Assembly: GCF_032062105.1 (NCBI RefSeq)
Contig: NW_026931074.1
Coordinates: 217,587 to 281,586, forward strand
Source: Saccostrea cucullata
Lineage: Eukaryota
Reading direction: 5' to 3'
DNA length: 64,000 nucleotides
The position numbers were made by a program, and so were the translations under genes. The first letter of the stretch is position 1; each line of letters begins with the position of its first letter. Below the pieces are notes generated by a model. The model ran no database searches and had not been told where the DNA came from. It saw only the letters and a program-made list of their open reading frames with translations. Shown here piece by piece: positions 5,629 through 50,215 of this stretch.

Positions 5629-8600
5629 TGTTAAATATCCTTTATCATCTATAGTCTATAAAACATCCTAATATGAAACAGATGTGGTGTTGTCTATCAT
5701 CTCAAGTTCACTGGCCAGGGATATATCGAGTCAACAAATGAATGAAAATAACTACTGTAATCAATAAAACATTGTCAACATACATGTATCTGAATGTTAA
5801 AATGAAGGCCACAGCAAGTGTTTTCTTTTTCTCACATAAAAGTTTTTAAATCTGTTTCATAATAAGAATAAAAAAATAGGCCAGCTTATAAAGGAGCACA
5901 ATTAGTGCCCATGTGGAATTTGAAGAGATCGTAAAAAGACTTGGTCTCCAGAGACTATATAAATGTTATCAATGAGGAATTCCAGCATATCCTTTTAAAT
6001 AAACATGGAGACAATCAATCTTACAGAAATAGATAGAGAATATTATACATATACTAAGATCCATATCATATACCATGTTTTTGTTCTTTCTGCTTGCCTG
6101 ACATTTTTGCTGGTATATATTGATATTTTATGTTGATTTTTGCTGAATATACATTTTGCACTAATTTGCTGAGTATATAATTTTTTGTTTTTCAGTCTTA
6201 TCAATTTGACCCTGATGTTTGTGCCAGATTACAGAATATTACTCAGCATGGTGTTATATGATTGTTTGTTACTGTGATGTCAGAACATTATGATGTCATC
6301 ATTTTGATACTATTCAGCATTATGAGGGCCTCAGTGGGAATCTGCTGCTGTTTCTACAGTTTTTGATTGTTATACAGTAATGCCTTATGTGTTATATTGT
6401 TTTTGTTTACATTCTCTTTTCTGTGATATGTATTTTTTACATACAATTCTACTGCATTTAAACTGTCCTTTTAAATTATTTTTTTATATCATGTTTACCC
6501 TTGAAAATTTTGTGCCAAGATTAGATTATACAGTTTTCAATGTCAGGTCCAGAAATCATTGCCTAAAAGTATAAAAGCATTACTTACAAAAGCCAAATGT
6601 ACTTGGTCAAATTACCAGTAACTTTATTCTGATATAGTGTTGTCAAAATGACATATTGCCTTGAACCTGTAGAGAATTGCAAACCCTGGAGGCAGACATT
6701 GTGTATTACTGCATGTCCTAGTCAACCTGTCTAAATGTTAATGCGTATATATCAGTCATTTACTTACAGCACTCCCTAAAGTTTTCCTGTTTTAAGATAC
6801 CTAATAAATTAAAATTCACAGACAAAAAAGAATTTATTGCTCTATATTTCTTATGCAAGCAGAGCTCTGGAAAATTGATTTATTTGAACTGGCATGAAGT
6901 GTAAATTGAGTTAAATAGGTTAACTGTGTTGATTGTTCGTCCATATGTATTGATTTTTATAGTACTTCTTGGGCTTGATAGATTTACATTCAACATCAGA
7001 GGCAATCATTGTCCATTTTATAGAAATATTACAAATTTTTTACATGCATGAGTTTTGTCAATCCATATATATAGCATAATTGTAAGTGCACACCTAGTTT
7101 TTCGATAAACCACAAAATTATAACTGGTTTATTGATATATAATTACAATTACCAAACTTGTACTATTATTGTATTTGGCTGAGTAAAAGATACCAAAATG
7201 TATTATGCTACAAGCAATTTAAATTAAAGATCAGTATATCATTATTAAGTTTTTTTAAAAAAAATTACGTAACAGTAAGCTATATACCTTGACCTATTTA
7301 TTTACTGAGTGTACATAGTATTTTCTGTTTTGCACCTGTGTTGTATTTTAGATCCTACATGCTTTTTTTTGTTAGAACCACTTCGTACCTATGTTACAGT
7401 CATGTTTTAAAAACCTCCAGCCAAAAAGAATGTGACATCATGATTCAAAGTTTTTAGTCCTATTCACTGGGGGTATGTCTTAAATAAAATGCATTGTACA
7501 TTAGTCATTTTATAATATTTATTTTGAGTTTAAAAGTCCGGATAATTTTTTTTAAATTCAATTATTGAGCTTTGGAATTATAGGGTTGTCACTGTGTACA
7601 TATTTTGAATATTTCACAAACACATCTTATATAACAAAGGACAGAAAGTTTTTGTACATACATAACAAGTTAAGGATTCATGAATTATTCTGCTAGATTG
7701 TTTTTGAGATAATTTCTGTGTGCAATGTATGTTATTACAATGTATGTTATTACCGAATATATCTGAGCCCTTGAATCAGAATCAAACTGTGATCTTAGGC
7801 ACTTTGTATCATTTGATATATATATATATATTTACTTTTAGTTTGTTTTACTGCACCTTATACATGTATTGTAGCCATTCAGTGGTGTTTGTTATAGATA
7901 TGTGATACTGTTATTTATATGTTTGTAATTTTTCCCTGTTTTTGTATAAAGCATGTCTTTTATAAATCTGTGAAAATTGTTATTTCACTACCCCTACAAA
8001 TTATCCTCCCTATATTTAAGGGGGCTGACTGTGGTTTCCATTATTTCACGCATCATAGTAAAACGTAGCATATTTTACTGTTTAAAGCAAATTTTTTTTT
8101 ACTTAATAAATAAAACAAAACAAAATTAGGAAATTACAGGTTGAACATTTTTATTACAATTTTAAATAACTGATTTTTAAAATGATTTTTTAACTGATAG
8201 GTAGATTTACATGGTAATGGTGTGTTTTTGATGTTAGATAACGTGACGCTCTCAAAGAAGAGGTAATAAAAAATGTTATAAAAGAAAAAGTAATAAATAT
8301 ATGCTTTTGAAATTTAAATCATAGAAATTTGATAATCTCTCCACCATATTTATCATTTTTTGGATAAATCCTTTGCATGCGTCATATTTTGTAGTACTCT
8401 ATAAAAACAAGGAAATTTGTTATTTTTTGGCATTTTGAGATGCCCCCTCTGGAAACAAGGTGATAGAATTTTGTGGTTCTTACATATAATGTACAATATA
8501 GTATTACTCATCATATATTATAGTTTGAGCTAAAAGTCTATTGTAGTATTTGTATAATTTGCTTTAAAGTGCGAAAATTTGGCACTTTCCCATATAATCC

Positions 8601-9966
8601 TATAGTAAATGTACCTGTATTTTGAGACGGCCCCTTAAAAATACCTGTGCGGTAGATTTCCCCCAAACTTGGCATGTACACTGATATCAATGTCAGTTAT
8701 ACATGGTATAAATTAAAATAAAGAGTTTCTCTTTTGTAGTTTTCACACAATAAATCCCAAGTCGGCCCCCTTAATTTATGCTTGGACACTTGCAGCAAGC
8801 AGGAAACAAATTTCCTTGATTTTTTTTATTAATCAATTCACCCATGTAATGAATTGTTCTGCAAAGCCATGGATATGATGAAGTGGGTATGTTGTTTGTT
8901 TATTGTTTTTATATTTACAGATTTCTAAACCTCAGTATCTTGAAAGCTTGGAAGTTCTTGAAAGTTCTTTCAAAGTACATACTGTGAGTTCAAGATACTA
9001 GTAACATTAGTGTTGACTGAATATTTCTCTAGTTTATATAAGGAATGAATTTAAAGCTGTGAGACCCCTGTTAGATTATTTTATGCTCTATCTGTCTGAT
9101 GAATATGAGTTATAGTTATAACAACTATATAATTAGAGTTGAGGGCCCCCCCAAAAAGTTTTTCCAAACATCTAATTGTAAAAATGAAGGGTACCATCAC
9201 TGGTGATGGAATTGGCCAAAAACACATCATGATAAAGAGAGATTTACAGAAAATGATAGAAGTGGCTGAACAGGTGATATTTCTGATGGAGACATTTGAC
9301 ATTGTTGCTTTTAGGTCAAACAGTATTTATATATACCTTCTATGCAGGTACTAAGATTACCATTAAGTAACAGTTTAATTAATGATCTTAGCTGTTAAAG
9401 TGACTAAAAGGCAGTCATTAGCAATCAGTCATACCACCAGTTTATTTTCCTCTATTTATAATCCTCAGTTGTCACTTTCATTGTGATTGGTCAAACCAGC
9501 AGGAAATCTTGGTTTTTGGGGCATTTTTCTTAATGGCAACCAAGAACAAATTCCACATATCTACAGAGCAATTTCCAGGACATAGTACTTAACATAATAA
9601 GGTCTTGTCACTGTTGACAGAACCTTAAACAAGCAAGACTGATTAGAATATAAAATGAACTTTAAAGTAGATACTTTTACCTAGTTTGGCCTGGATGTAA
9701 CTGTCAACCATAAGTACTAAAGTACCAAAGCATGGAGAAAAACTACAATCTAGTACTGGATGTTCCAAGAGTATTGATTCCTGTTTAATCTATAGGTTAA
9801 CTGGTAACTAGTGATCAGTTACAAGACAAGCAATAAAACAGGCCAAAATATTGAATTAGGATATAGGGCAATATATATTGTAAAAATGTATAAATCAATA
9901 CAAAACTCGTAGTTGAACTTTAAGTCATCAAATGGACAAACCAAAGATCATTATGTACAGGAACAG

Positions 9967-10422
9967 TAGGGATGGGTATCGCTTTTCGTAGAGATACCCA
10001 TGTCTCCCACAATATCACGATAATATCATGATATTTTTAAAAGGAGTTTTTACAATGATTTTATAAGAAAAGTCACTATTTTTCTAAAAAAATATGCTAG
10101 AAAAACAAAATTTTACTTTCTTGAAATTTTTATGTATATAAAATCAATTATGTTTGGACAGTAAGATGCCATTCTTTTCACTTTTTACAACATTTTTTAT
10201 ACTTTCTGTAATTGTAATTTGAAAGGTTTGTCATGTTATAAATTTTCAATTTACCCGATATATTCAAAATTTACAACATGACAGGTTGAACAACTAAATG
10301 AATAATTTCTGGACTTTATAATTTGTACCTAAATACCAGTATTTAGGTCTCCGTATCACGATACCTATCACGCAACAAAAAATCGCGATATATCGGTATA
10401 CCGATCAAATCACACATCCCTA
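9967..10422. mobile_element. hAT-like MITE (456 bp) with 8-bp TSD aggaacag
   Basis: Terminal inverted repeats are tagggatgggt at the left and acacatcccta at the right. Identical 8-bp direct repeats aggaacag lie at 9959-9966 and 10423-10430. An 8-bp TSD with TAG-initial TIRs is typical of hAT-superfamily non-autonomous elements. There is no coding capacity. Confidence 0.55.
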
Positions 10423-10464
10423 AGGAACAGACAAGCTTATTCAGAGAACCCATGTCTCCCGCAT

Positions 10465-11630
10465 AAGGGGACGAACATTTGATTCTGAGGGGGGGGCCTG
10501 GCAGATTTTGGAAATAAATAATCTGTCCCTGAAAATGTTGAAAATAAATAATCCGTCCTCCTCTGCAAAGAAAATAAATAATCTGACCTTGACTTATGAT
10601 ATTTAAATATTGTGAAAATACCTTTTTATTTCTGTGTACTTTAACCTCAGAATCTTCAATTCAGCATTTTTTTTTTCTTTCATCGCCATTTTAGAACCAA
10701 ATAATATTTAAAATCAGATTACCAGACTGGATACTTGTAGTCAGTTGATCAACATGACAATGTGCACTAAGTAGATGTGATGAATCACTTTAAATACAAG
10801 CAAATTCTTAAACACCACAAAAGATAAATTTTCTTGTCAAAGAATTATACTACCCGATAAATTAATTACAAAGTAAACAGTGGCGGATTTAAGGAAGGCA
10901 TACATGTGTATGACCCCTCCCCTAAAATTTCAAAGTATGATATGAATTATATTAATATTGCCATAGTATAGTACAGTACCAATATTTTTGTGCCTAGTTT
11001 TACTCTTAAAATGCACACAAACCCAAGAGCTTCAGGGGGCTTCGCCCCCTGGGCCCCCTTCATCCAAAGTATGATATGACTTAAGTATTAATTATGTCAT
11101 ACTTTTGAACATAACTAACCAATTCCTAGATAATTGTGCCTGGTTTTACTCTTAAAATACACAAAAACCCACGAGCTTCAGGGGGCTTCGCCCCCTGGAC
11201 CCCCTTCATTCAAAGTATGATATGACCAATATTAATAATGACATACTTTGCTACATAATAACCAATACCACTATAATTGTCCTGGTTTTACTCTTAAAAT
11301 ACTTGAAAACCCAAGAGCTTCTGGGGAATTTCCCTCCCTTGGCCTCCACCATGTGCTTCGCCCAGGACCCACTGGGGGCCTTAAGGCGGCCCAAGACCTC
11401 TTGCCTGAACGAAGTTATACACGCCCCCCATCCTGAATCCGCCTATGGTATATAAATGATTAGTCTTTTATCAAATTCAATCGATCAAGGTACCGTAAGA
11501 CAAAGAAGAAAATATAATCTGTCCTCGATAATCTTGAAAATAAATAATCTGTCCTTGACAGGCATGAAAATAAATAATCCATCTCAAAAAAATTTGCCAG
11601 GCCCCCCCCTCAGAATCAAATGGTCGTCTC
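10465..11630. mobile_element. Composite non-autonomous element with roughly 40-bp TIRs, G-rich tracts and internal tandem repeats
   Basis: The left end ataaggggacgaacatttgattctgaggggggggcctggcag (10465-10506) is the reverse complement of the right end ctgccaggcccccccctcagaatcaaatggtcgtctcctaagg (11594-11636). Each end is followed or preceded by 3 direct copies of gaaaataaataatcYgtcc. The interior holds about 125-bp tandem units and a G18 tract (11662-11684) just outside the element. Confidence 0.45.
10925..11345. repeat. About 125-bp tandem repeat, 3 copies (inside the composite element)
   Basis: The unit ...tgtgcctRgttttactcttaaaatRcacaaaaacccaMgagcttcagggggcttcgccccctggRcccccttcatYcaaagtatgatatgac is repeated head-to-tail three times. 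The GC-rich core gcttcgcccc..ctgggggcc..aaggcggccc recurs at 38900-38985. Confidence 0.5.
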
Positions 11631-14142: not shown

Positions 14143-17100
14143 ATATCACTCAGTATAAGACACTGTGTCTGATACATCACTCAGGATAAAACACTGTGTC
14201 TGTGATACATCACTCAGGATAAGACACTGAGTCAATGTGTCTGATACATCACTCAGGATAAGACACTGAGTCTGTAATACAACACTCAGGATAAGACACT
14301 GTGTCTGATACATCACTCAGGATAAGACACTGAGTCTGTGATACATCACTCAGGATAAGACACTGAGTCTGTGATACATCACTCAGGATAAGACACTGAG
14401 TCTGATACATCACTCAGGATAAGACACTGAGTCTGATACATCACTCAGGATAAGACACTGTGTCTGTGATACATCACTCAGGATAAGACACTGAGTCTGT
14501 GATACATCACTCAGGATAAGACACTGAGTCTGTGATACATCACTCAGGATAAGACACTGAGTTGATACATCTCTCAGGATAAGACACTGAGTCTGTGATA
14601 CATCACTCAGGATAAGACCCTGAGTCTGTGATACATCACTCAGGATAAGACACTGAGTCTGTGATACATCACTCAAGATAAGACACTGAGTTTGATACAT
14701 CACTCAGGATAAGACAATGAGTCTGTGATACATCACTCAGGATAAGACACTGTGTCTGATACATCACTCAGGAGTCTGTGATACATCACTCAGGATAAGA
14801 CACTGTGTCTGATACAGCACTCAGGATAAGACACTGAGTCTGTGATACATCACTCAGGATAAGACACCGAGACTGATACATCACTCGGGATAAGACACTG
14901 AGTCTGTGATACATCACTCAGGACAAGACACTGAGTCTCTGATACAGCACTCAGGATAAGACACTGAGTCTGTGATACATCACTAAGGATAAGACACTGA
15001 GTCTGTGATACATCACTCAGGATAAGACAATGTGTCTGATACATCACTCAGGATAATACACTGAGTCTGTGATACACTACTCAGGACAAGACACTGAGTC
15101 TGTGATACATCACTCAGGATAAGACACTGAGTCTGTGATACATCACTCAGGATAAGAGAATGAGTCTGATATCACTCAGGATAAGACACTGAGTCCGTAA
15201 TACAACACTCAGGATAAGACACTGTGTCTGTGATACATCACTCAGGATAAGACACTGAGTCTGTGATACATCACTCAGGATAAGACACTGTGTCTGATAC
15301 ATCACTCAGGATAAGACACTGAGTCTGTATTACATCACTCAGGATAAGACACTGAGTCTGTATTACATCACTCAGGATAAGACACTGAGTCTGATACATC
15401 ACTCAGGATAAGACACTGTGTCTGATACATCACTCAGGATAAGACACTGTGTCTGTGATACATCACTCAGGATAAGACACTGAGTCTGTGATACATCACT
15501 CAGGATAAGACAATGAGTCTGATATCACTCAGGATAAGACACTGAGTCTGTAATGCAACACTCAGGATAAGACACTGTGTCTGATTCATCACTCAGGATA
15601 AGACATTGAGTCTCTAATACAACACTCTGGATAAGACACTGAGTCTGTGATACATCACTCAGGATAAGACACTGAGTCTGTGATACATCACTCAAGATAA
15701 GACACTGAGTCTGATACATCACTCAGGACAAGACACTGAGTCTCTAATACAACACTCTGGATAAGACACTGAGTCTGTGATACATCACTCAGGATAAGAC
15801 ACTGAGTCTGTGATACATCACTCAGGATAAGACACTGAGTCTGTGATACATCACTCAGGATAAGACACTGAGTCTGTGATACATCACTCAGGATAAGACA
15901 CTGAGTCTCTGATACATCACTCAGGATAAGACACTGAGTCTGTGATACATCACTCAGGATAAGACACTGAGTCTGTGATACATCACTCATGATAAGACAC
16001 TGTGTCTGATACATCACTCAAGATAAGACACTGAGTCTGTGATACATCACTCAGGATACAACACTGAGTCTGTGATACATCACTCAGGATAAGACACTGA
16101 GTCTGTGATACATCACTAAGGATAAGACACTGAGTCTGATACATCACTCAGTATAAGACACTGTGTCTGTGATACATCACTCAGGATAAGACACACTGTG
16201 TCTGATACATCACTCAGGATAAGACACTGTGTCTGTGATACATCACTCAGGATAAGACACTGAGTCTGATACATCACTCAGGATAAGACACTGTGTCTGT
16301 GATACATCACTCAGGATAAGACACTGTGTCTGTGATACATCACTCAGGATAAGACACTGTGTCTGATACATCACTCAGGATAAGACACTGAGTCTGTGAT
16401 ACATCACTCAGGATAAGACACTGAGTCTGTAATACATCACTCAGGATAAGACACTGTGTCTGTGATACATCACTCAGGATAAGACACTGTGTCTGAAACA
16501 TCACTCAGGATAAGACACTAAGTCTGTATTACATCACTCAGGATAAGACACTGTGTCTGATACATCACTCAGGATAAGACATTGTGTCTGATACAACACT
16601 CAGGATAAGACACTGAGTCTGTGATACATCACTCAGGATAAGACACTGAGTCTGTGATACATCACTCAGGATAAGATACTGAGTCTGTAATACATCACTC
16701 AGGATAAGACACTGAGTCTGTGATACATCACTCAGGATAAGACACTGAGTCTGTAATACATCACTCAGGATAAGACACTGAGTCTGTGATACATCACTCA
16801 GGATAAGACACTGAGTCTGTGATACATCACTCAGGATAAGACACTGAGTCTGTGATACATCACTCAGGATAAGACACTGTGTCTGATACATCACTCAGGA
16901 TAAGACACTGAGTCTGTGATACATCACTCAGGATAAGATACTGAGTCTGTAATATATCACTCATGATAAGACAATGAATCTGATATCACTCAGGATAAGA
17001 CAAGTCTGACACTGAGTCTGTGTCTGTGATACATCACTCAGGATAAGTCTGTGACACTGATAAATACTGAGTCTCTGATACATCACTCAGGATAAGACAC

Positions 17101-19815
17101 TGTGTCTGATACATCACTCAGGATAAGACATTGAGTCTCTAATACATCACTCAGGATAAGACACTGAGTCTAATACATCACTCAGGATAAGACACTGAGT
17201 CTGTGATACATCACTCAGGATAAGACACTGAGTCTAATACATCACTCAAGATAAGACACAGTGTCTAATACATCACTCAGGATAAGACACTGAGTCTGTG
17301 ATACAACACTCAGGATAAGACACTGTGTCTGATACATCACTCAGGATAAGACAGTGTCTGTGATACATCACTCAGGATAAGACACTGAGTCTGTGACACA
17401 TCACTCAGGATAATACACTGAGTCTGTGATACATCACTCAGGGTAAGACACTGAGTCTGTGATACATCACTCAGGATAAGACACTGAGTCTGTGATACAT
17501 CACTCAGGATAAGACACTGAGTCTGTATTACATCACTCAGGATAAGACATTGAGTCTGTGATACAACACTCAGGATACAACACTGAGTCTGTGATACATC
17601 ACTCAGGATAAGAGACTGTGTCTCATACATCACTCAGGATAAGACACTGAGTCTGTGATACATCACTCAGGATAAGATACTGAGTCTGGGATACATCACT
17701 CAGGATAAGACAATGAGTCTGATATCACTCAGGATAAGACACTGAGTCTGTAATACATCACACAGGATAAGAGACTGTGTTTCATACATCACTCAGGATA
17801 AGACACTGAGTCTGTAATACATCACTCAGGATAAGACACTGAGTCTGTGATACATCACTCAGGATAAGACACTGAGTCTGTGATACATCACTCAAGATAA
17901 GACACTGAGTCTGATACATCACTCAGGACAAGACACTGAGTCTCTAATACAACACTCTGGATAAGACATGAGTCTGTGATACATCACTCAGGATAAGACA
18001 CTGAGTCTGTGATACATCACTCAAGATAAGACACTGAGTCTGATACATCACTCAGAATAAGATACTGTTTGTGTGATACATCACTCAGGATAAGATACTG
18101 AGTCTCTGATACAGCACTCAGGATAAGACACTGAGTCTGTGATACAACACTAAGGATAAGATACTGAGTCTGATACATCACTCAGTATAAGACACTGTGT
18201 CTGATACATCACTCAGGACAAGTGATACATCACTCAGGATAAGACACTGAGTCTGTGATACATCACTCAGGATAAGACACTGAGTCTGTGATACATCACT
18301 CAAGATAAGACACTGAGTCTGATACATCACTCAGAATAAGATACTGTTTCTGTGATACATCACTCAGGATAAGATACTGAGTCTCTGATACAGCACTCAG
18401 GATAAGACACTGAGTCTGTGATACATCACTCAGGATAAGACAATGAGTCTGATACATCACTCAGGATAAGACACTGTGTCTGTGATACATCACTCAGGAT
18501 AAGACACACTGTGTCTGATACATCACTCAGGATAAGACATTGTGTCTGATACATCACTCAGGATAAGACACTGAGTCTGTGATACATCACTCAGGATAAG
18601 ATACTGAGTCTGTAATATATCTCTCATGATAAGACAATGAGTCTGATATCACTCAGGATAAGACACTGAGTCTAATACATCACTCCGGATAAGACACTGT
18701 TTGTGTGATACATCACTCAGGATAAGACACACTGTGTCTGATACATCACTCAGGATAAGACATTGTGTCTGATACATCACTCAGGATAAGACACTGAGTC
18801 TGTGATACATCACTCAGGATAAGATACTGAGTCTGTAATATATCTCTCATGATAAGACAATGAGTCTGATATCACTCAGGATAAGACACTGAGTCTAATA
18901 CATCACTCAGGATAAGACACTGTGTCTGTGATACATCACTCAGGATAAGACATTTGTCTGGTACATCACTCAGGATAATAAACTGAGTCTGTGATACATC
19001 ACTCAGGATAAGACACTGTGTCTGATACATCACTCAGGATAAGACACTGAATCTGTGATACAACACTCAGGATAAGACACTGAGTCTGTGATACATCACT
19101 CAGGATAAGACACTGAGTCTGTGATACATCACTCAGGATAAGATACTGAGTCTGTAATATATCACTCATGATAAGACAATGAGTCTGATATCACTCAGGA
19201 TAAGACCCTGAGTCTGTAATACAACACTCAGAATAAGACACTGTGCCTGTGATACATCACTCAGGATAAGACACTGAGTCTGTGATACATCACTCAGGTT
19301 AAGATACTGAGTCTCTGATACATCACTCAGGATAAGACACTGTGTCTGATACATCACTCAGGATAAGACACTGAGTCTGAAACATCACTCAAGATAAGAC
19401 ACTGTGCCTGTGAAACATCACTCAGGATAAGACACTGAGTCTGTGATACATCACTCAGGATAAGACCCTGAGTCTGTGATACATCACTCAGGATAAGACA
19501 CTGAGTCTGTGATACAACACTCAGGATAAGACACTGTGTCTGATACATCACTCAGGATAAGACAGTGTCTGTGATACATCACTCAGGATAAGACACTGAG
19601 TCTGTGATACATCACTCAGGATAATACACTGAGTCTGTGATACATCACTCAGGATAAGACACTGAGTCTGTGATACATCACTCAGGATAAGACACTGAGT
19701 CTGTGATACATCACTCAGGATAAGACACTGTGTCTGTGATACATCACTCAGGATAAGACAGTGAGTCTGATATCACTCAGGTTAAGACAATGAGTCTGAT
19801 ACATCACTCAGGATT
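14143..19815. repeat. Minisatellite array, about 175 tandem copies of a 31-33-bp unit (gatacatcactcaggataagacactgagtctgt)
   Basis: A direct read shows continuous head-to-tail repetition over about 5.67 kb with point variants (gag/gtg, small indels). Each unit carries the inverted hexamers actcag and ctgagt, so a 6-bp stem-loop is possible. The minus-strand ORFs 14410..19551 (MMYQTQCLILSDVS...) are repeat-translation artefacts. Confidence 0.95.
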
Positions 19816-39250: not shown

Positions 39251-40785
39251 ACATCCAGGTAGTACACACCAATATTGTAATCCTAATTGTCATACAATAG
39301 TCTTAGTCCTTTGTCAGACACCAGTTCTTGTCCTGTGTCATAAACAAATCATGGTATTTAGCCGCACATTAGATATAACCCTATGTCACACACTAAGGAA
39401 TCGCACACCATTTAAATGTACAGAACATGTAAATTGGTGTGCCATAGGGCTAAGACTAGTTGCCCCTGTCCTCACTTTTAAATACGATGCTATGTCCCTG
39501 GCTAGGATTCAGCCAGAGAGAAAAAAAAGCAATTCAATCTACCGGAAAAAAAGTCAAGAATGAAAAAAAAATCTACTTTTCCTGTGTGTATTTGGAGGGG
39601 TGAGGTGTAGGCTCTTTCAGTACCATAAACTGATTAATTTAATATCCTTGCCCTTTTTTGAACCTTTTCAAAAGTAAAAAGGTTGTGTTTGGAAAACAGT
39701 GGAAAGACCATCCCCCCACCCTCACATTGCTACATGTGCCTAATAGCCCAATTTGTCATGCCAGACTAGACAAGTCATAATATAAAAGCGGGGGTTAGAG
39801 TCAGAGGAATCTCGGATTACATACACCAGTGCCACTTCTATTTGACATAAAAGTAATGGTCATATCCCAATCCTATTCCATATCATCTCATTTAGGTATA
39901 GTCGTACCGAATATTCTATATCATCTTTGCACACAACAATCACACGTTAAACGTGTTGCAGCAAAGGTACATGCCCAGTATTTGGGCCTTTGGGATCTCT
40001 GTGATACATTTGTATTTTCCAACAATAAGATGGCATTCCAGTCCCCATGTTTTCACGTTTGACATGTACATGTTTATGTTGCGGGGGGACCAGCTGTCAA
40101 AATACGGTGCTAGTTGATCATTTTGTCATTCATAGTTTACTTGATAGAACAAAGCTGATTTTTAACACGTACTCAAAACTTAACATTGAAGTAGATAAAT
40201 AGACCTTAGTTAATAGATGTAGAGTGGGGGATTTCTTTTTGATAATTTTAGACATGTTTTTGAATAATGAATGTATCCTGAAATAGATTTCCCCTTGAAT
40301 ATTGTTGTTAGATATTAGTCAATACTGAAGGCAGCATTTGTGATTTACATTCTATCTATAAGATGCTTACTTTATTTAAACTCACTTGCTACATTTTTAT
40401 TTTAAAAAATGATGAACATAAAAAAATAATCTGCTTTAATATAACCAAACGAGTTCTTCCCCTTAATATTTCTATAAGTCCTAAAAAGTGATAAAAAGGC
40501 TTAGATCTTTATGACTGTAAAGGGAAATGTAATGACCGTAAAAAGTGTGCATGTTGAAAATCAGATTTAAAAAAACAACAGTTCTTCTGCATAATTCACA
40601 ACCAAAATAAATGCAACTAGTCCTCATTGTAACGGGGACCGTTACAGATGTTCCCCAAACGCTCCCCAACTCCCTTTTGGTGCCAAATTCCCTGTAAGCT
40701 TCATTAAATAAGACAAACTTTATGCATTTGAGACTTTAACAAAGTTTACCCAGAAGGGTACCAAGTTCATTCAAATTTTAGCATT

Positions 40786-41700
40786 GCACGCGTGCGCATG
40801 TGAATGCATGTGCATAATGACCATATCGTCTTGTCTATACAATCTATATATTTTAATATACTAAATATTAAAGTATTTAATCCAAAAGCATTAAAAAATA
40901 CGCTCATTCAGGTGTTTTTTTGATTTTACTCATTACATGTGCACGCACGTACATACATGAGCATGGTGACCATACCTTCTTGTAGAAGTCTATTACATCT
41001 ATCTGTGTTCTAAATCCCACTCCGTTTGGTAACCAAGGGAGTTATAACTGTTTAAAGTTTCAGCCAATCAGATTGCAGTGCACGTGTATGGATGTGCATG
41101 GTGACAAAACCTTCTTGCAGAAGTCCATTATATCTATCTATGTTCCAAATCCCATCCTGTTTGGTTGAAAACCAAGGGAGTTATAGCTATTTAAAGTTTC
41201 AACCAATCAGATTGCAGCGCACGTACACGCACGTGTACGGATGTGCATGGCGACCATACCTTCTTGTAGAAGTTTATTATATCTATCTATGCTCAAAATC
41301 CCATCCTGTTTGGTTGAAAACCAAGGGAGTTATAACTATTAAAAGTTTAAGCCAATCAGATTGCAGCGCACGTGCATGCACGTGTTTTCATGATAATTGT
41401 TATATATGATGTTGTAGGATATCCTAATGCATGGCTATGTTCAAAATTTCAAAGGATTTCATCAAAAAACAAGAAAGATATTGAGACTTTGGTTTCAGCC
41501 AATTAGAGCGAAGCGCACGTGCATGCGCGTGAGATCTTGCTAATTTGACCATGTCATGTTGTCTATGCAACTAATATATCCTTATATTATGAGTTTCAAA
41601 GCATTTCATCAAAAAGGTAAAAAGTTACGCCTATATCAATTAAATCGGTCATTTCACGTGTTGCACGTGCACACTCTTGCAAGCACGTGCGCGCAAAATG
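40786..41700. repeat. Tandem satellite of ~142-bp units (3 well-conserved copies at 40936-41380 plus degenerate flanking copies) rich in CACGTG and CCAAT motifs
   Basis: The unit ...gcacgtRYRYgcaYgtg...catggYgaccataccttcttgtagaagtYtattaYatctatctRtgYtcMaaatcccaYcctgtttggttgaaaaccaagggagttataRctRtttaaagtttcaRccaatcagattgcagYgcacgt is repeated head-to-tail. Further decayed copies at 41490-41530 and 41640-41700 retain gccaat..gcgcacgtgcatgcgcgtg. Confidence 0.8.
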
Positions 41701-42260
41701 ACCTTCGTTCCGCAAATCTACATAACATGCCTACTGACCCTAAAAAGGTTTTACCTAAGTCGGATGTGTAGTTTACAAGATCACTCCCGGACAAATAAGT
41801 ACCCAGGAAGAAGAAGAAAAATAATAATAATAATAAGAAACAGAGTAAAAACACAAGGTACAGTGAGCACTGAGCTCACAAAATAATACCCCTGATCCGA
41901 TGTGAGTTGTAGTAACAGAGAGATAGCAATGTATTTGTTTTCATAGTACCGGAAATCCAAATATCTGTCGATTGAAACGAAAATAGGACGTACACAATAG
42001 AACAATGTTGTAAAGATTTTGTGGAAGTCTCATTCATGAAATTCAATTGAGTGTTTTAGGGGTAGTGATGGATAAGCACATGTTATAGATAACCCCAAGT
42101 GTTACAAACATTATACATGTACAATTATGGCTAAACATATTTTATTTTTGTGTTTGAAACAAGTATCCTTACACATTAAAATAAAAAAAAATTCTTGTTG
42201 CAAAGTAAATTCCTATGCCCGTAAGACTGCTGGGTTTTGTATATTTTCAGATACCAACAC

Positions 42261-42803
42261 ATGATGCGAAGCAGTCAAAAATTCGTTCCCCCGACACGTC
42301 CTAGCACTCTGCGTCCAGTGAATCCTGTTGTTGAAGAGTCCACCAGAACTCCTAAATGTCGGCGCCTGTACAGCGACCCAGCAGAGAGTATCTTCAGCAG
42401 TACTCCAGTGCTCACTATCCTCACAGATACAAACAACGTCAGAAGCCCGGACGTCAACAATAAGAACAACGAGGATGTGCCCTCCAATGCTGTTCTCGTC
42501 AGAAGAAAACGGAAGACTTTTTCGGAGAAAGAAAATCAAACGACAGTAGTAACACCAGAACAAGAAGTAGCCCGAACTTTGTCAGCAAGTCCGGTGTTAC
42601 CCCAAAGACCCCAGGCAGACTTCACTCACAAACAGACAAACAGAGTGTTCAAAAAGAATCACATTACGCCTGACCCCATCCCCGCAGTGCTGGAGCAACT
42701 AAGAGATGTGCCCTCCACTACAAACGACTGTGCGAGTATCTTCAACTTCACTCCGAGCCCTCCTCCAAAACGCAAAACCATAGCTGCATCTGAGAAGAAG
42801 AAG
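42261..42803 (+). CDS. Unknown basic S/T/P-rich low-complexity protein, main coding exon (KEN motif; RRKRK basic cluster)
   Basis: An acceptor atattttcag ends at 42250. The first in-frame ATG is at 42261 (MMRSSQKFVPPTRPSTLRPVNPVVEESTRTPKCRRLYSDP...VLVRRKRKTFSEKENQTTVVTPEQE...PSPPPKRKTIAASEKKK). The donor AAG|GTGGGT is at 42804. The ORF 42237..42821 is open throughout. The composition suggests an intrinsically disordered nuclear protein. I could not recognise a family. Confidence 0.5.
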
Positions 42804-43022
42804 GTGGGTGGCTTTTCTTGAAAACGTATTGCATTTTCCCCCAAGGATAACAACGCCTGCTCAGGTAAGTGTCGTACTTCGAAGAGATTTTCCCCTTATA
42901 TATAAAAAAAAATGCATTGCATTTTTGAATGAAATGAAATGAATATAATTACATGTATTTATCGTCAATATAACACATGCAGTTGAATAAAATTAAATGA
43001 ATTACGGTTATTTATCTGTTCA

Positions 43023-43024
<2 letters not shown>

Positions 43025-43114
<90 letters not shown>
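43025..43114. repeat. (AT)45 microsatellite
   Basis: An uninterrupted atat... run is read directly, inside the putative intron after the 42261-42803 exon. Confidence 0.95.
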
Positions 43115-43949: not shown

Positions 43950-46900
43950 GGACAGGGTTATGTGATAAATCGTAAATATTTACAATTTTACATGTAGATA
44001 TGGAATTCATGTGACCTCATTCGGGGCGACAGCGTCATAAAACTCACAACAGCTTGTAATACGAAAAAGTAACAATATTACAATGTGTTCTTTTTGTTTC
44101 ACGTGCTTATTTTTTATATGCGTAAAAAAGAATAAAAATGGAAAGTGTTTCCCCTAACAAACTAAGATGGAAACTGATGACTATTCAAAAGTACTATTAT
44201 TTCTGGGATTTGATTAGTCAGCAGGGTGACATACAGAAATAAGCGAAAACAAATGTAAAAAAAAGAAGTAGATATTAATTTTTTTAGGTAAAAACTAAAT
44301 GTCAGCTATATTTTTGAATCTGAGAAAAGAATTGATAACGACAATTTCTGAAACTTAACAAAAACGGGAAACGGCATCTAAAATCGAAATATATCCTGGT
44401 AAATAAACTAGATATGATAGACTAGGAATTCATATATTTTGGGTAAAATTGTCATGTCTAATAAAAATTCTTCGAAGGAAGGTGGAAAGTGGTGGTGGGG
44501 CATCATATTCTTTCGTCAGGTACTGATGCAGGGACGAAACAACAGGGGGTGCTTTTTCCCCCAAAATTACCTTTACTATAGTAAATGTTCATTGAAAGGA
44601 TGGTTAGCCCCCCGCTTTTTATCATAGTATAATGATATCAAGGAATTGTAGGAAAAAATTGGAAGTGAAAGTAACTTGGCATTGAAAAAGTTGGCCACTA
44701 CACCCCCCCACCCCACCCCCGCCCCGAAATAGGATTTTCGAGTTTGGGCAAATTTTTTTTTTTTTTTTTGCTTGTCAACTTTTTCAGGTAAGTTAAAAAA
44801 AAATTTCTCTGGTTGGCCCCCCACTTTCAAAAACGATGCTACGTGCCTGTGATGCATTCTGTCATATTTGCAGTATGCTTATAACCGGTGTTTATCATAG
44901 AAGCATAAGATTTTTTTTTTATCCCTTACTATATCAAATACTAGAGGTACTGTGAGTACTGTCTGATCTCACTAAATGATACCCCCTCCTCCCATATCAT
45001 AATGACGAAGTCCATGTTTTTAGCTCTGGGAGACCCGAAATAAGTGTTAGATCGAAAAAAAGGAAGTGCACAATGTCATTATGTAATAAACATCTGTGAG
45101 AGTATCAATAAATTTTATTTAGTGGTTTTATTCAGAGGAGTTTCGAATAAGAGATGGATGCCCTTCAATATAAAAGATAGAATGACAGTGTCCATATTTT
45201 GTTATTGAAACCTAAAATATATATCAAATCAAAAAGTAAAATAGGAGGTGCACAATGACACTATATGGCAAAGATTCTGTCTCATTATGTATCATTCAGT
45301 GGTATAAGAGGAGTTGCGGAGAAGAGATGGGTACCCCAAAGCGTAACAGACTGACGGACATCCCGATCACTGTATACCCTCCCACTTTTCAAGCGTGGGG
45401 AGTGGGGGTTATATTAGACAGCGAAATAAAAACAATATTGTGTTCGTGCAGATATTTTGTCTTACATCGTATCTAGGGGGTGAAAACGGGAACAATTTTA
45501 GAGGGAAAAAATTGTAAAGGAGCAACAACAAACAGACGGAAGAACTCACTTACAACTACATGAATAAAAAAAAATTAAAATATTATTTTTTCCTTAATTG
45601 CGCAGAAAAAAATTACCATGCATGTTGTCACAGTTGACCTTACAGACACCCTAACTAGTTAATAGATATTCAGCTTTTGTGAAATGACTTTAAAAAAAAA
45701 ATCAAGAAAATGTTTTTATTTCTCTGCACAGTGTTGCCATGGTTAAGAAAATTTGATACTTTATGAAATTTCTTCAAAATTTTACTCCACCTCTAGTTTT
45801 GGTCCAATTTCACTCGTATATAATGTTTTACATAAGGATATGGACTCAAAGTTTATATGGATGTCCTCCCCAAAGCAAGCTACTCCTTTATGGTTAATGT
45901 GTAGGTTACGAAGTTTCAAATAATCTCAACCTTGAGCCTTGAGAAGTCACCCTCCTTTATCTTAATGTCTCTTCCTCGCACTATATTTACGGTTTAGATT
46001 GAAGATGTCAATATTAAGTCAAGGAATGTTCCTTTTGAGTTTGGAAATGACAGACTTGTGACTTGACTTTTGCCCCTAAAAGACACCAGGCGTTTTCCGT
46101 CTACTATACAGTAAATATGAAGTCTAAAACTAAATGATTGTCAAGGTTAATGTTTGATAGTTCATCATCGTCGCAAACCACGGCCAAAATGTACGATTCT
46201 CTCCCATTCAGGGAAGAGCGCGGACTCTGAACCGTGGCTTGAGACGAAGGATGTTCTTATGTTAGTATTTGTATTTTACTTAACTTGCCTCATATTCTAC
46301 TGATATAGCGATATTTCTAACCACGAATCATGGCATTTATGCAACAATTTAGAAACAAAAGTTTTGATCGCCTAAGGTCGAGCATATTCTATCTGAGTAG
46401 ATTACATGAAATCTTTTAAATCATTGTGACACAGTGACAACAGGAAATCATTAGTGTGAGGTAACTGACTTATCTGTCCCTATAGTTCCACACCCAGAAA
46501 TTAAAGATTCTCGCTATTAGGCCATGTTTAAATTAATGTTTGTTTGCCATCTCCCGACTCAGGGTAAAATTATTGGGTAGGTAGCATTTTTTTCCCAGTA
46601 AATTTCAACGTACCTGTAAATTTCAACATATTTGTTGATGGGGAAAGAGGAAAAAAAAGTGTCCTGGAAGGTAGAAACAAAAATTGTTTTAATGGTATAC
46701 TAAGTACTATAGTCTACATATTCCAAAGTTATATTGCTTGAATGCTATTACTTAGTATAAAAATTACTTTTACATGTATATCAATTTAATAATTCATACT
46801 TGGAACTTCTAGAGCAAAAGCATACTTTGGGTTTGGGGTTTTCAACAACAGAGAATTATGGACTTTTTCCATCACAAACTTTTTAAAACACCACTTGTTA

Positions 46901-47329: not shown

Positions 47330-50215
47330 ACCATCAACACTGGAATGTGCAAATAATGTATAGAGGAGGAGATTCAGCACAGATTGCGAGAGAAGTGGGA
47401 ATCAATGAGTGCAGAAAACCACCGGAGCTATTAAGATAAGACTGGCCTCGGGCCAGACCGTCATGTACATTGGGGATGAAGAACTACTTAAGGAAGGATT
47501 TGTCATAATGATCAACCAACGGGCTATAAAATCACTCATGGAATGGACACACATCAGCAAGAGAACAATGGCAGCACGATCCTATTCAAGATACAGGAGA
47601 TTGTCGGTGATCCAAGCATATGCACCACATAATCAAAAGAAAGAAGAGGAGAAAAACCAATTCTTTCAGGAGTAACAAGCGACCTTGGATGAATGTAATA
47701 CGGACAACATCATTATTATCATGGGGGACTCATGGCCAAGATAGGGAGTGGCAATAATGGATATGAAAGAACTATAGGTATCCAAGGACTGGGAACACAG
47801 AACGAGAATGGAGAAATACTGTGTGAATTTAGTCGGACCAAACGGACTTGTAATCATAGGAACACTGTTCCCCCATAAAGACGTACACAAAGCAACTTGG
47901 GTGTCTGCTACTGGAACATTGAAAACCCAGATTGACATCTTCTCATTAGTGGACAGTGGAGATCTTCTGTTCTTGACATCAAGGTTCAGAGGGGAGCGGA
48001 TGCCGACAGCGACCACTAGCTGGTGAAGACCCGAATCAGGATACGGCTCACCACACAAGTATAAGAACAAGTTGAAACCAAGATTGGATGTAGAACGCCT
48101 CAAAAACAACAAAGTAAAAACAATGACTTTGCGAGAAAGAAATTAGAATAGCACAGGGAAAAGACGGATGATATCGAGGAAATGTGGAAAATCAGAAGAT
48201 GGCATATGTGAATTCAGCAGAGAAAGTACTTGGCTACAAACATTAGATCAACGAAAACACCTTGAAGTTGATAGATGAAAGAAAAGACATCAAGAAAAAG
48301 ATAGAGAGCAAAAGATCAGAAAGAGTCAAGACTAGGTTGAATGAAAATTACAAGGAGAGAGACAAAGTCGTCAAGAAAAGCGATAGAGGACAAGAGGAGA
48401 TGGATGGGAGAGAAGGCTGAGCGAGCACATAAAGCAGCCGAGAACAGGAGGTAGAAGGAACTGTACAGCATATTAAAGCAGCTGACAAGAAAGAGTAGTA
48501 AGGAAACAGCAGCGATGAAGAGCAAAGAGGGGGAGCTGCTGAAAATAAAGAAACGAGGCTTGCCAGATGGAGGGAACATTCTGAGGAAGTGCTCATCATG
48601 GACACGCCAGAATCCCCACCACAAGATGAACATGAGGAGGGAGAATAGCTAGACTTCTCGGTTGAGCCACCCACCACACAGGAAATAAGGACTACACTGA
48701 AGACACTTCGGAATGGAAAGGCCCCTGGAGCAGATCAAATAACTGCAGAAAAGTTAAAGGCAGACCTTGATAGGAGTAGCCAAGAATTGAAGCACACCTT
48801 TGACCAGATACGGAAAGAGGAAAAGGTGCCCAAAGAATGAACCAGAGGACTGATCTGTAAAATTCACAAAAGAGGCAACAGGACTGCAGCAAGTGGAAGG
48901 GAGTCACATTGCCCGTAGCCAGCAAAGCACTCATAAGGATCATCATCAAGATAATACAGGCTGGAGTTGACCACACCCTTAGCAAAGAGCAGGCACGGTT
49001 TCAGAAAGGGAGAGGGACTTTTAATCAGATTTTCTTCCTCAGGAACATACTGAAGCAAGACAATGAGTAGAATGCTACACTGTACATCCATTTTGTGGAC
49101 TTTGAGAAAGCTTTCGACTCGGTGCACAGAGACAGCATTTCGGTCATCATGAAGAAATATGGTATACCCATAAACTGATTACGATGGTCAAAGCCCTGTA
49201 TGACAAGTTTGTTCTGTGATTGATGACAACGAGACCAACTACTCCTTTCCTGTGATGACTGGTGTCAAACAAGGATGCTGAATGTCAGGGTTCTTCTTCC
49301 GCCTAGTGATAGACTGGGTGATGCAACAGACTGTCAGAGAAAAGAGAACAGGAATAAGACTTTCACCACTATGCTTGAAAACCTTGACTTTGCTGACGAC
49401 ATTGCCCTACTGTCATCAGCAATGAACTATCTTACGTCAAAGACAACAAAACTGGAAGAAAAATCCGTAAAAGTTGGGTTGAGGCTGAATGCCAAGAAGT
49501 GCAAAGTGATGAAGATAAATAGCAAGAGTAAAATCAGCCTGATAGTCGGAAACGGGGAAGCCGACGAGGCGAACAACTTCACTTACCTCGGTGCCAATCG
49601 ACCGATGATCGGTCGATGTCTGTTGCCCACCACTCAACCCCCCGATGACCTCAGATTCAACGGACACTTGACGATGCTCGGCCATACATCGGCCAATCCT
49701 TGAAAGATGTGTTAATGACGGGTTGCCAACGATTAGTTAAATGGCCTCAGTAACCGTCCTATTACTAAAGGAGTCCAGCCGGCAACCACACCATTTTTAT
49801 CAAAAAACGCATCGGTTTCTAATCGTTTACCCCATTGCTGGATAATGTGACTGATGCTTTACCAAGACAGAGGAAAAGAAGATCATTCAGTCCAAGTGCC
49901 TCAGAAGGATTCTAAAGGTCAGATGGCAGCAGCATATCCCAAACAAGACATCTCTGGAAATGGCAGAAGCAGAAAACATTAGTTGCGAGGTGGGCAGGAG
50001 GAGATGGAATTGGATCGGCCATGTGCTTAGAAAGGATCACACGGATGACTGCGTTGTGACCCTCGGTTGGACGCCTGAGGGGAGAAGAAACGAGGGCAAT
50101 ATGACGGTAGATGGTGCAGGCTGGAACACGGGACGCCGTGCAGCCTCAGACCGGCCTCAGTGGAAAGGAGATATCCAGGCCTTGTGTGCCTCCTGGCACG
50201 GAGAGAATTAAGGTA
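47330..50215 (+). mobile_element. Degenerate RTE-clade non-LTR retrotransposon (APE endonuclease plus reverse transcriptase), frameshifted and interrupted
   Basis: The endonuclease motifs appear in ORFs 47409..47675 (..RRLSVIQAYAPHNQKKEEEKNQFFQE) and 47808..48026 (..KDVHKATWVSATGTLKTQIDIFSLVD..). RT motifs in three frames over 48700-49560 include NGKAPGADQITAEKLKAD, FVDFEKAFDSVHRDSI, NLDFADDIALLS and KCKVMKI. The C-terminal ORF 49960..50211 (EVGRRRWNWIGHVLRKDHTDDCVVTLGWTPEGRRNEG...RPQWKGDIQALCASWHGEN*) is characteristic of RTE-type elements. Multiple stops and frameshifts indicate a dead copy. Confidence 0.75.
49588..49862 (-). mobile_element. Nested insertion of a ~275-bp CCGATG/CGATCG-rich non-autonomous element (antisense) inside the LINE RT region
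   Basis: This segment interrupts the RT reading frame between the FADD motif (about 49380) and the RTE C-terminal motif (49960). Its reverse complement matches the sequence that follows the LINE stop codon (50225-50470), which starts atcagtcacattatSCARCaatgggg... Additional copies lie at 50475-50575, 51290-51385 and 51500-51850. Confidence 0.5.

Follow-up and report, generated by a model that had tools for sequence, protein, structure and literature searches.

A phased CCAAT/CACGTG array near an oyster gene is probably the central repeat module of a non-autonomous, Helitron-like element in Saccostrea cucullata

Introduction

The closest described relatives of the element reported here are the oyster Helentrons Cg_HINE and pearl (Vojvoda Zeljko et al., 2020, PMC7492417; Thomas et al., 2014, PMC4067079). 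In a HINE, a left flank with a microsatellite is followed by a variable spacer, central repeats resembling satellite DNA and a right flank; a palindrome is located 8–35 bp from the terminus, and insertion occurs at a TT target with no duplication (PMC7492417; PMC4067079). The canonical non-autonomous Helitron begins with 5'-TC, ends in a palindrome of 16–20 nt followed after about 11 nt by CTRR-3', and has an A|T target (PMC4067079). Here we describe a segment of 1,235 bp, termed element A (40620–41854, minus strand), in a window of 64,000 nucleotides from Saccostrea cucullata (contig NW_026931074.1, positions 217,587 to 281,586 of the forward strand; all positions without another source are counted from the first letter of this window). 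Element A lies on the 5' side of the gene LOC134231323 and contains a short tandem array (40786–41700) with many CCAAT and CACGTG motifs. We argue that this array is probably the central satellite-like repeat module of a non-autonomous rolling-circle (Helitron/Helentron) element of about 1.24 kb, a kind that is common in oysters.

The motifs of the array recall a second system. Chromatin immunoprecipitation followed by sequencing (ChIP-seq) in human showed that the preferred distance from CCAAT to the E-box is 10–12 bp at sites co-bound by NF-Y and USF, and that such sites are frequent in LTR12 repeats (PMC4889920). An initial annotation of this stretch of DNA had presented the array as either a repeat-derived enhancer or promoter of the downstream gene or just a satellite.

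Results

The locus of S. echinata (L001) that corresponds to this part of the window has the same neighbours, with an amine-oxidase gene (minus strand) upstream and the orthologue of LOC134231323 downstream. A blastn comparison of window positions 28000–50000 with L001 was collinear, 39946–40443 matching 8341–8811 and 41951–42861 matching 9696–10587; no match in L001 was obtained for 40620–41854, and the S. echinata gene is intact. By direct reading and local alignment, the S. echinata junction is ...ACAACCAAAATAAGTCCAGCTA|AAGGTACTGTGAGCACATAGCTCAC... (also read as ...CAGCTA|AAGGTACTGTGAGC...) and that of the window is ...ACAACCAAAATAAATGCAACTA[1,235 bp]AAGGTACAGTGAGCACTGAGCTCAC..., i.e., the host sequence CTA|AAGGTAC of S. 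echinata appears as CTA[1,235 bp]AAGGTAC in the window. Comparison of this empty site with the window gave no target-site duplication. On the minus strand the empty site reads ...ACCTT|TAG..., a T|T site, in agreement with the insertion of HINEs at TT without duplication, as seen at one site only and with a boundary that is ambiguous by 3 nt. The segment missing from S. echinata has sharp edges and takes in, besides the array, 166 nt of non-repeat DNA on one side of it and about 150 nt on the other. We infer that the event was a gain and not a loss: once the two species had separated, element A would have inserted in the S. cucullata lineage, without target-site duplication, at a T|T position bordering another repeat-bearing element.

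The array itself, to which no strand was assigned, was delimited by Tandem Repeats Finder (TRF), a repeat search and alignment of the units. TRF reported 40957–41378 (period 149, 3.0 copies, 82% matches), the repeat search gave start-to-start spacings of 135–149, and the alignment revealed diverged units on both sides of the three-unit core. Blocks rich in GCACGTG mark the unit junctions at 40786, 40936, 41080, 41229, 41368, 41515 and 41655, and the array hence comprises six units of 139–150 bp, namely u1 (40786–40935), u2 (40936–41079), u3 (41080–41228), u4 (41229–41367), u5 (41368–41514) and u6 (41515–41654), plus a degenerate seventh, u7 (from 41655). Units u2–u4 are 88–91% alike; u1, u5 and u6 are much more diverged and align only in part, and CCAAT is absent from u1, u6 and u7. 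The tandem array of the initial annotation is therefore real, but its period is about 145–149 instead of 142 bp, it is smaller and looser than described, and it stops near 41700 and not at 42260. Nor is it a satellite in the classical sense of long, homogeneous and abundant arrays, with its 6–7 units of which three are homogeneous. Its end at about 41700 lies 551 bp before the exon start at 42251; the sequence between (41700–42250) is unrelated to the array and is made up of the tail of element A, another repeat family and unique DNA.

An instance of the unit elsewhere, for which the initial annotation had proposed a search, was found next to unrelated flanking DNA. It was reached through a protein search, in which a 105-aa open reading frame (ORF) across two units matched one predicted protein (P0012), and is located on an independent 625-bp contig (L002) of a metagenome assembly in the European Nucleotide Archive (ERZ27264474) that matches window positions 40615–41133 at 88%. 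The two are similar from ...AACTAG onward, whereas the 88 nt that precede it in L002 bear no relation to the left flank in the window. The contig holds the 166-nt unique flank, the palindrome described below and, arranged as in the window, u1, u2 and the beginning of u3. Between the two copies, identity is 91% for u1 and 92% for u2, whereas u1 and u2 of the same copy are about 75% identical over a partial alignment. Since corresponding units are alike across copies and unlike within a copy, the heterogeneous array was copied as one piece together with its flank. The 166-nt flank is 91.6% identical to that of L002, and a terminal block of 57 nt that includes the palindrome is identical in both copies, which makes it the best-conserved part of an element that elsewhere shows about 88–92% identity; an invariant terminus is what would be expected of a transposition signal.

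The two copies mark the array as part of a dispersed element. The opposing view, i.e., a satellite born locally by tandem duplication in place of unique intergenic DNA with no mobile element involved, could draw on the lack of any other copy in the 64-kb window by blastn and on the lack of subterminal inverted repeats or a target-site duplication at element A. It would have to account for the same flank, palindrome and unit order beside unrelated DNA in L002, and for the non-repeat sequence on either side of the array that the S. echinata gap takes in with sharp edges; we consider it very improbable. Since S. echinata has no array at the orthologous position and the array recurs elsewhere with a different flank, it is also not an ancestral or conserved regulatory element of LOC134231323.

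Further copies were sought in several collections. P0012 returned only itself from 1.84 billion protein representatives, a scan for the terminal 22-mer gave no match in the metagenome contigs of the Joint Genome Institute and in viral contigs, and a protein-guided metagenome scan yielded no further copy. A full-text literature search with the unit and palindrome sequences was without match, and the supplementary sequences of two C. gigas papers gave matches only to the unrelated 166-bp CL1 family. One candidate, a 19-mer match to the palindrome region found among bacterial genomes (L005 2126–2145, in a contig with 67% GC of a betaproteobacterial metagenome-assembled genome), was rejected: it shares a 20-nt exact match alone, and about four such matches are expected by chance in a collection this large.

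Read on the minus strand, element A opens with a T-rich start, GTGTTTTTAC... (GTGTTTTTACTCTGTTTCTT), which is followed by (ATT)5(CTT)3, a spacer of about 110 nt, the six to seven units of about 145 bp, the 166-nt flank, GTAACGGTCCCCGTTAC, AATGAGGAC and (TAG)TT. The microsatellite, (GAA)3-(AAT)5 in window orientation (41806–41838, minus strand; TRF 41820–41836), is about 20 nt from the end of the element and, by analogy, would correspond to the microsatellite of the HINE left flank; the spacer and central repeats that come after it in a HINE are likewise found in element A. At the opposite end, the right flank in element orientation (40620–40785, minus strand) extends from the array to the terminal palindrome and is non-repetitive, no repeats having been found in it by the repeat searches of the window. 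The palindrome, GTAACGG-GGA-CCGTTAC (17 nt, 40629–40645, minus strand), stops 9 nt short of the insertion boundary, or 12 nt short of the ...CTAG end. We presume that it forms the 3'-terminal hairpin, with a predicted DNA fold of -9.5 kcal/mol (z about -2.4 to -2.7) in both copies. GTAACGGTCCCCGTTAC is 9–12 nt from the end in each copy, within the 8–35 bp from the 3' terminus known for HINEs. No Rfam match and no tRNA were found in element A, and its ORFs are short and frame-shifted between units.

With Cg_HINE/pearl, element A shares the host group, a length of about 1 kb and the lack of coding capacity, as well as a microsatellite close to one of its ends, a central array that is short and has units of about 140–170 bp, a unique flank with a palindrome near the terminus, TT insertion without target-site duplication and occurrence in or near genes. 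It differs from them in that it has neither subterminal inverted repeats (subTIRs) nor clearly its own pair of subTIR and inverted repeat (IR), in that neither its unit nor its flanks show any relation to the 166-bp CL1/Cg170 family, and in its microsatellite, which is (ATT)n and not (GTCY)n. It recalls the canonical non-autonomous Helitron in its 17-nt palindrome followed by 8 nt, CTAG and T, and shares with it the lack of a duplication and of coding capacity; both copies read palindrome-AATGAGGA-CTAG-T, and this palindrome-N8-CTAG-T resembles the Helitron 3' end (PMC4067079). The TAG, however, occurs in the empty site of S. echinata as well, and neither the 5' end nor the target is that of a canonical Helitron.

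Two textbook HINEs within the same window served as a positive control (about 27766–28751 and 32874–33809, minus orientation). They have a perfect 11-nt subTIR, GCTCACCTGAG, with its IR partner, a 3' palindrome, GGCCCATGGGCC, a (GTCY)n [(ACAG/ACGG)n] microsatellite and 166-bp CL1/Cg170-like repeats (x3.3 and x2.8). Their 5' end, GTTTTTAGCTC..., resembles the GTGTTTTTACTC... of element A. Situated on either side of an amine-oxidase exon (31446–32384), both are probably intronic.

Several observations weigh against assigning element A to this superfamily or limit what can be said of it. The 11–15 bp subTIRs that define HINEs are absent: a search between the terminal 160 and 200 nt gave no exact inverted match of 9 nt or longer and none of 11 nt or longer with up to 1 mismatch, and the arms of the palindrome of the neighbouring repeat matched the other flank at best with at least 5 mismatches in 12. 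The canonical Helitron 5' TC and A|T target are also lacking, the 5' end being GTGTTTTT... with its first TC 10 nt inside and the flanking bases being T|T, or C|T under an alternative boundary. The low-coordinate boundary is itself ambiguous by about 3 nt, the CTA at 40617–40619 (TAG) being common to the empty site and both copies. Two copies were found, one of them partial; S. echinata, moreover, could have lost the segment, in which case S. cucullata would not have gained it; no autonomous partner was found, and no Rep/Hel ORF lies near element A in the window. Because it has no subTIRs, its 5' end is not TC and its site is not A|T, we do not file element A as a verified HINE; its sequence features point to a non-autonomous member of the Helitron superfamily with HINE-like architecture, for which we infer rolling-circle transposition. 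A canonical Helitron in the plus orientation (5' TC at 40621; 3' palindrome at 41863–41879 with CTGA at 41892–41895) was considered and set aside, for that palindrome and the sequence downstream of it occur without element A both in S. echinata and at 44945.

The A-rich stretch containing (AAT)5, 16 nt from the high-coordinate end, could also be taken as the 3' tail of a retroposed element on the plus strand, similar to a short interspersed nuclear element (SINE), with an (AAT)n/A-rich tail and a decayed target-site duplication, and the last 17 nt of element A, AAACAGAGTAAAAACAC, are weakly similar to the left host flank, AACCAAAATAAATGCAACTA. The similarity of this putative duplication is about 60% in A-rich sequence, however, which is no better than chance, and the tail is internal rather than terminal. 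No head resembling tRNA, 5S or 7SL was found, and neither the terminal palindrome at the opposite end nor the internal 145-bp tandem repeats are features of SINEs. A SINE-like origin hence seems hardly credible.

The initial annotation had credited 40786–42260 with at least 5 CCAAT boxes and more than 10 E-boxes. We counted four CCAAT in this interval (41064, 41203, 41352 and 41499), and the figure for E-boxes stands under the loose pattern CAYRTG, with 11 in the array, but not for the perfect CACGTG, with eight, all within 41081–41689. The array thus accounts for 8 of the 11 CACGTG in the whole window, for which shuffling predicts 4.4 overall and about 0.04 in a stretch as long as 41081–41689; the clustering is far beyond chance. 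All these motif instances, however, go back to a single ancestral unit and did not arise independently. A scan for bacterial promoters and terminators, which is of a type not applicable to eukaryotes, showed no enrichment. Three of the four CCAAT boxes are CCAATCAG, the optimal NF-Y core, and in all four CCAAT-bearing units CACGT[G/A] begins exactly 12 nt past CCAAT. The result is four CCAAT-N12-CACGTR composites (41064–41521, plus strand), with CACGTG/A starting at 41081, 41220, 41369 and 41516, each of which has the 10–12 bp spacing of the NF-Y/USF composite.

This arrangement brings up the alternative that the module was exapted, its four phased composites of NF-Y (CCAATCAG) and USF/MAX-type (CACGTG) sites working in this lineage alone as an enhancer or as an alternative promoter of LOC134231323 or of the divergently oriented amine-oxidase gene, an idea that is compatible with a transposon origin. 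Besides the core present in three units and the fixed 12 nt after every CCAAT, which agree with the spacing at the human, LTR12-rich NF-Y/USF sites (PMC4889920), it is favoured by the position of the array in intergenic DNA between divergent genes, 0.55–1.5 kb away from the first coding exon, and by the 100% identity between the copies of the 21 nt around the single CCAAT that both cover. The spacing rule, on the other hand, was derived from vertebrates and not molluscs, three of the units (u1, u6 and u7) are without CCAAT, and S. echinata has the orthologous gene intact with no array.

The behavior of the E-boxes also speaks against exaptation. All CACGTG motifs lie inside alternating purine-pyrimidine tracts of about 13–26 nt, of which there is one at every unit junction (for example GCGCACGTACACGCACGTGTACG; 41217–41239), the other tracts being at 40785–40816, 40934–40959, 41078–41090, 41366–41385, 41513–41531 and 41662–41695; the window has 34 alternating runs of 12 nt or longer, 8 of them in the array. 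Between the copies these junction tracts are 86.7% identical, differing at 11 of 83 nt (8 transitions) and by a 10-nt indel, as compared with 91.6% elsewhere; they evolve at least as fast as the rest of the element and are probably its fastest-evolving part, and both the CpG transitions and the 10-nt indel fall within them. The E-boxes are not conserved in position: CACGTGCACGCACGTG of L002 stands against CATGTGCACGCACGTA of the window and CGTACGTA against GCACGTG, two CACGTG of L002 correspond to CATGTG and CACGTA in the window, and a TACGTA of L002 corresponds to CACGTG. Judging from these alignments, the turnover would be the product of CpG decay and of slippage in a cryptically simple tract, and is unlike purifying selection.

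On balance, exaptation of the module is unlikely, although a lineage-specific regulatory side-effect of the composite sites is conceivable. The preferred explanation remains that the phasing is a property of the mobile element: one ancestral unit, consisting of CCAATCAG and then an alternating purine-pyrimidine (GCACGTG-type) tract, would have been duplicated, and the regular spacing of CCAAT and CACGTG would be due to that duplication and not to selection for transcription-factor sites at the gene. Between the two possibilities held out by the initial annotation, the findings hence favor the mundane one, in the form of the repeat module of a mobile element, and go against a conserved promoter.

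At its microsatellite end, element A adjoins exactly the edge of another repeat family, here called family B, which is present in S. echinata without element A. Family B has 163-bp units and was found at 41855–~42110, at 44945–~45400 and in L001 at 9306–~9860. It starts with AGGTAC and the palindrome GTGAGC..GCTCAC, right after CTAG/CTAA. Its left end in the window (41855–41889, strand not assigned) consists of AAGGTAC, the palindrome GTGAGC-ACTGA-GCTCAC (41863–41879) and AAAATAATA. The window has a single unit on the 5' side of the gene, whereas S. echinata has three in tandem at the orthologous position. To the left of CTAG, L002 shows a similar series, made up of (TAA)n, AAGAAAC.., AAGGT, a strong palindrome with a 12-bp stem and AATAATAA. 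Both known copies abut an AAGGT-palindrome module at the same end. Element A may thus favor sites beside such palindromes; alternatively, the palindrome may be a flank module common to both, with tandem copies present in L002.

The first coding exon of LOC134231323 (42251–42793, plus strand; acceptor AG at 42249–50, ATG at 42261, donor GT at 42794) translates from 42261 into a sequence that is 100% identical to the 221-aa uncharacterized protein of this locus at NCBI. The S. echinata orthologue is 73% identical, and the more distant homologues are from oysters and known from read assemblies only; the sequences at hand indicate an oyster-restricted, low-complexity protein, in which no Pfam family was found. 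A related contig (L003, from Logan), compared with the window to locate a 5' UTR or transcription start site, is genomic and not a transcript; it matches the window in the coding sequence only and placed neither. Alignment of seven oyster homologues showed that the N-terminus, MRxSQKFVPPTR...CRRLYSDP..IFSSTP, and DCASIFNFTPSPPPKRK are conserved. The KEN tripeptide (42525–42533, residues about 98–100), after which the gene had been labelled in the initial annotation, occurs in S. cucullata alone among the seven, S. echinata having ENVNQ; the label does not describe a conserved motif. The acceptor at 42249–42250 is plausible because the polypyrimidine-AG before 42251 is conserved in S. echinata. 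If splicing does occur there, the array falls within an intron or else upstream of a 5' exon that the comparison with L003 did not reveal, a placement that also tells against the array as an exapted promoter.

Since synteny places the start of the amine-oxidase coding sequence near 37.3 kb, element A is situated in about 4.9 kb of divergent intergenic/5' DNA that is rich in repeats. In S. echinata, an extra sequence of about 350 bp with G-rich and poly-A blocks, GGGGTGGGTGGGGG, is found just upstream of the empty site (L001 8811–9190). Because this sequence is missing in S. cucullata, the 5' region of the gene is a hotspot of repeat turnover in both species.

Other repeats were observed in the window. 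A perfect (AT)45 microsatellite (43025–43114) occupies the intron past the first coding exon. A minisatellite of 5.7 kb (14145–19814) is composed of about 175 copies of a 33-bp unit, ATCACTCAGGATAAGACACTGAGTCTGTGATAC, with 86% matches and higher-order periods of 66 and 97 bp, and its unit is an imperfect palindrome. An ORF of 142 aa (49275–49703, plus strand) encodes ...LDFADDIALLS... and other motifs resembling reverse transcriptase, and is probably a fragment of a non-LTR (long terminal repeat) retrotransposon.

Discussion

The case described here is that of an ordinary lineage-specific transposon insertion, the internal tandem repeat of which mimics a phased promoter array. Human LTR12 (ERV9) offers the nearest parallel for its motifs: in both, CCAAT is borne by a repeat, the E-box follows at a fixed distance of about 12 bp, and the pair is reiterated within the repeat. 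LTR12, in contrast, is an LTR retrotransposon in another phylum, and binding to it was demonstrated by ChIP-seq, whereas element A is known from sequence alone and its E-boxes are not conserved between copies.

A more far-reaching proposal, which we put forward as speculative and think improbable, is that element A represents a rolling-circle lineage of Saccostrea that lacks subTIRs, homes to the palindromic ends of other HINEs and spreads a preformed array of composites of the NF-Y/USF type. If this were true, element A would seed lineage-specific promoters or enhancers near genes, as LTR12 does in primates.

The main value of the finding lies in annotation, in that a seemingly designed, phased promoter array turned out, upon comparison with a sister species, to be a by-product of a transposon repeat. 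It adds a Saccostrea example to the pattern known from oysters, where rolling-circle elements disperse short satellite-like arrays, albeit one whose fit to HINEs is imperfect since subTIRs are lacking. Should the motif grammar prove functional, element A would be an invertebrate case of transposons distributing NF-Y/USF modules.

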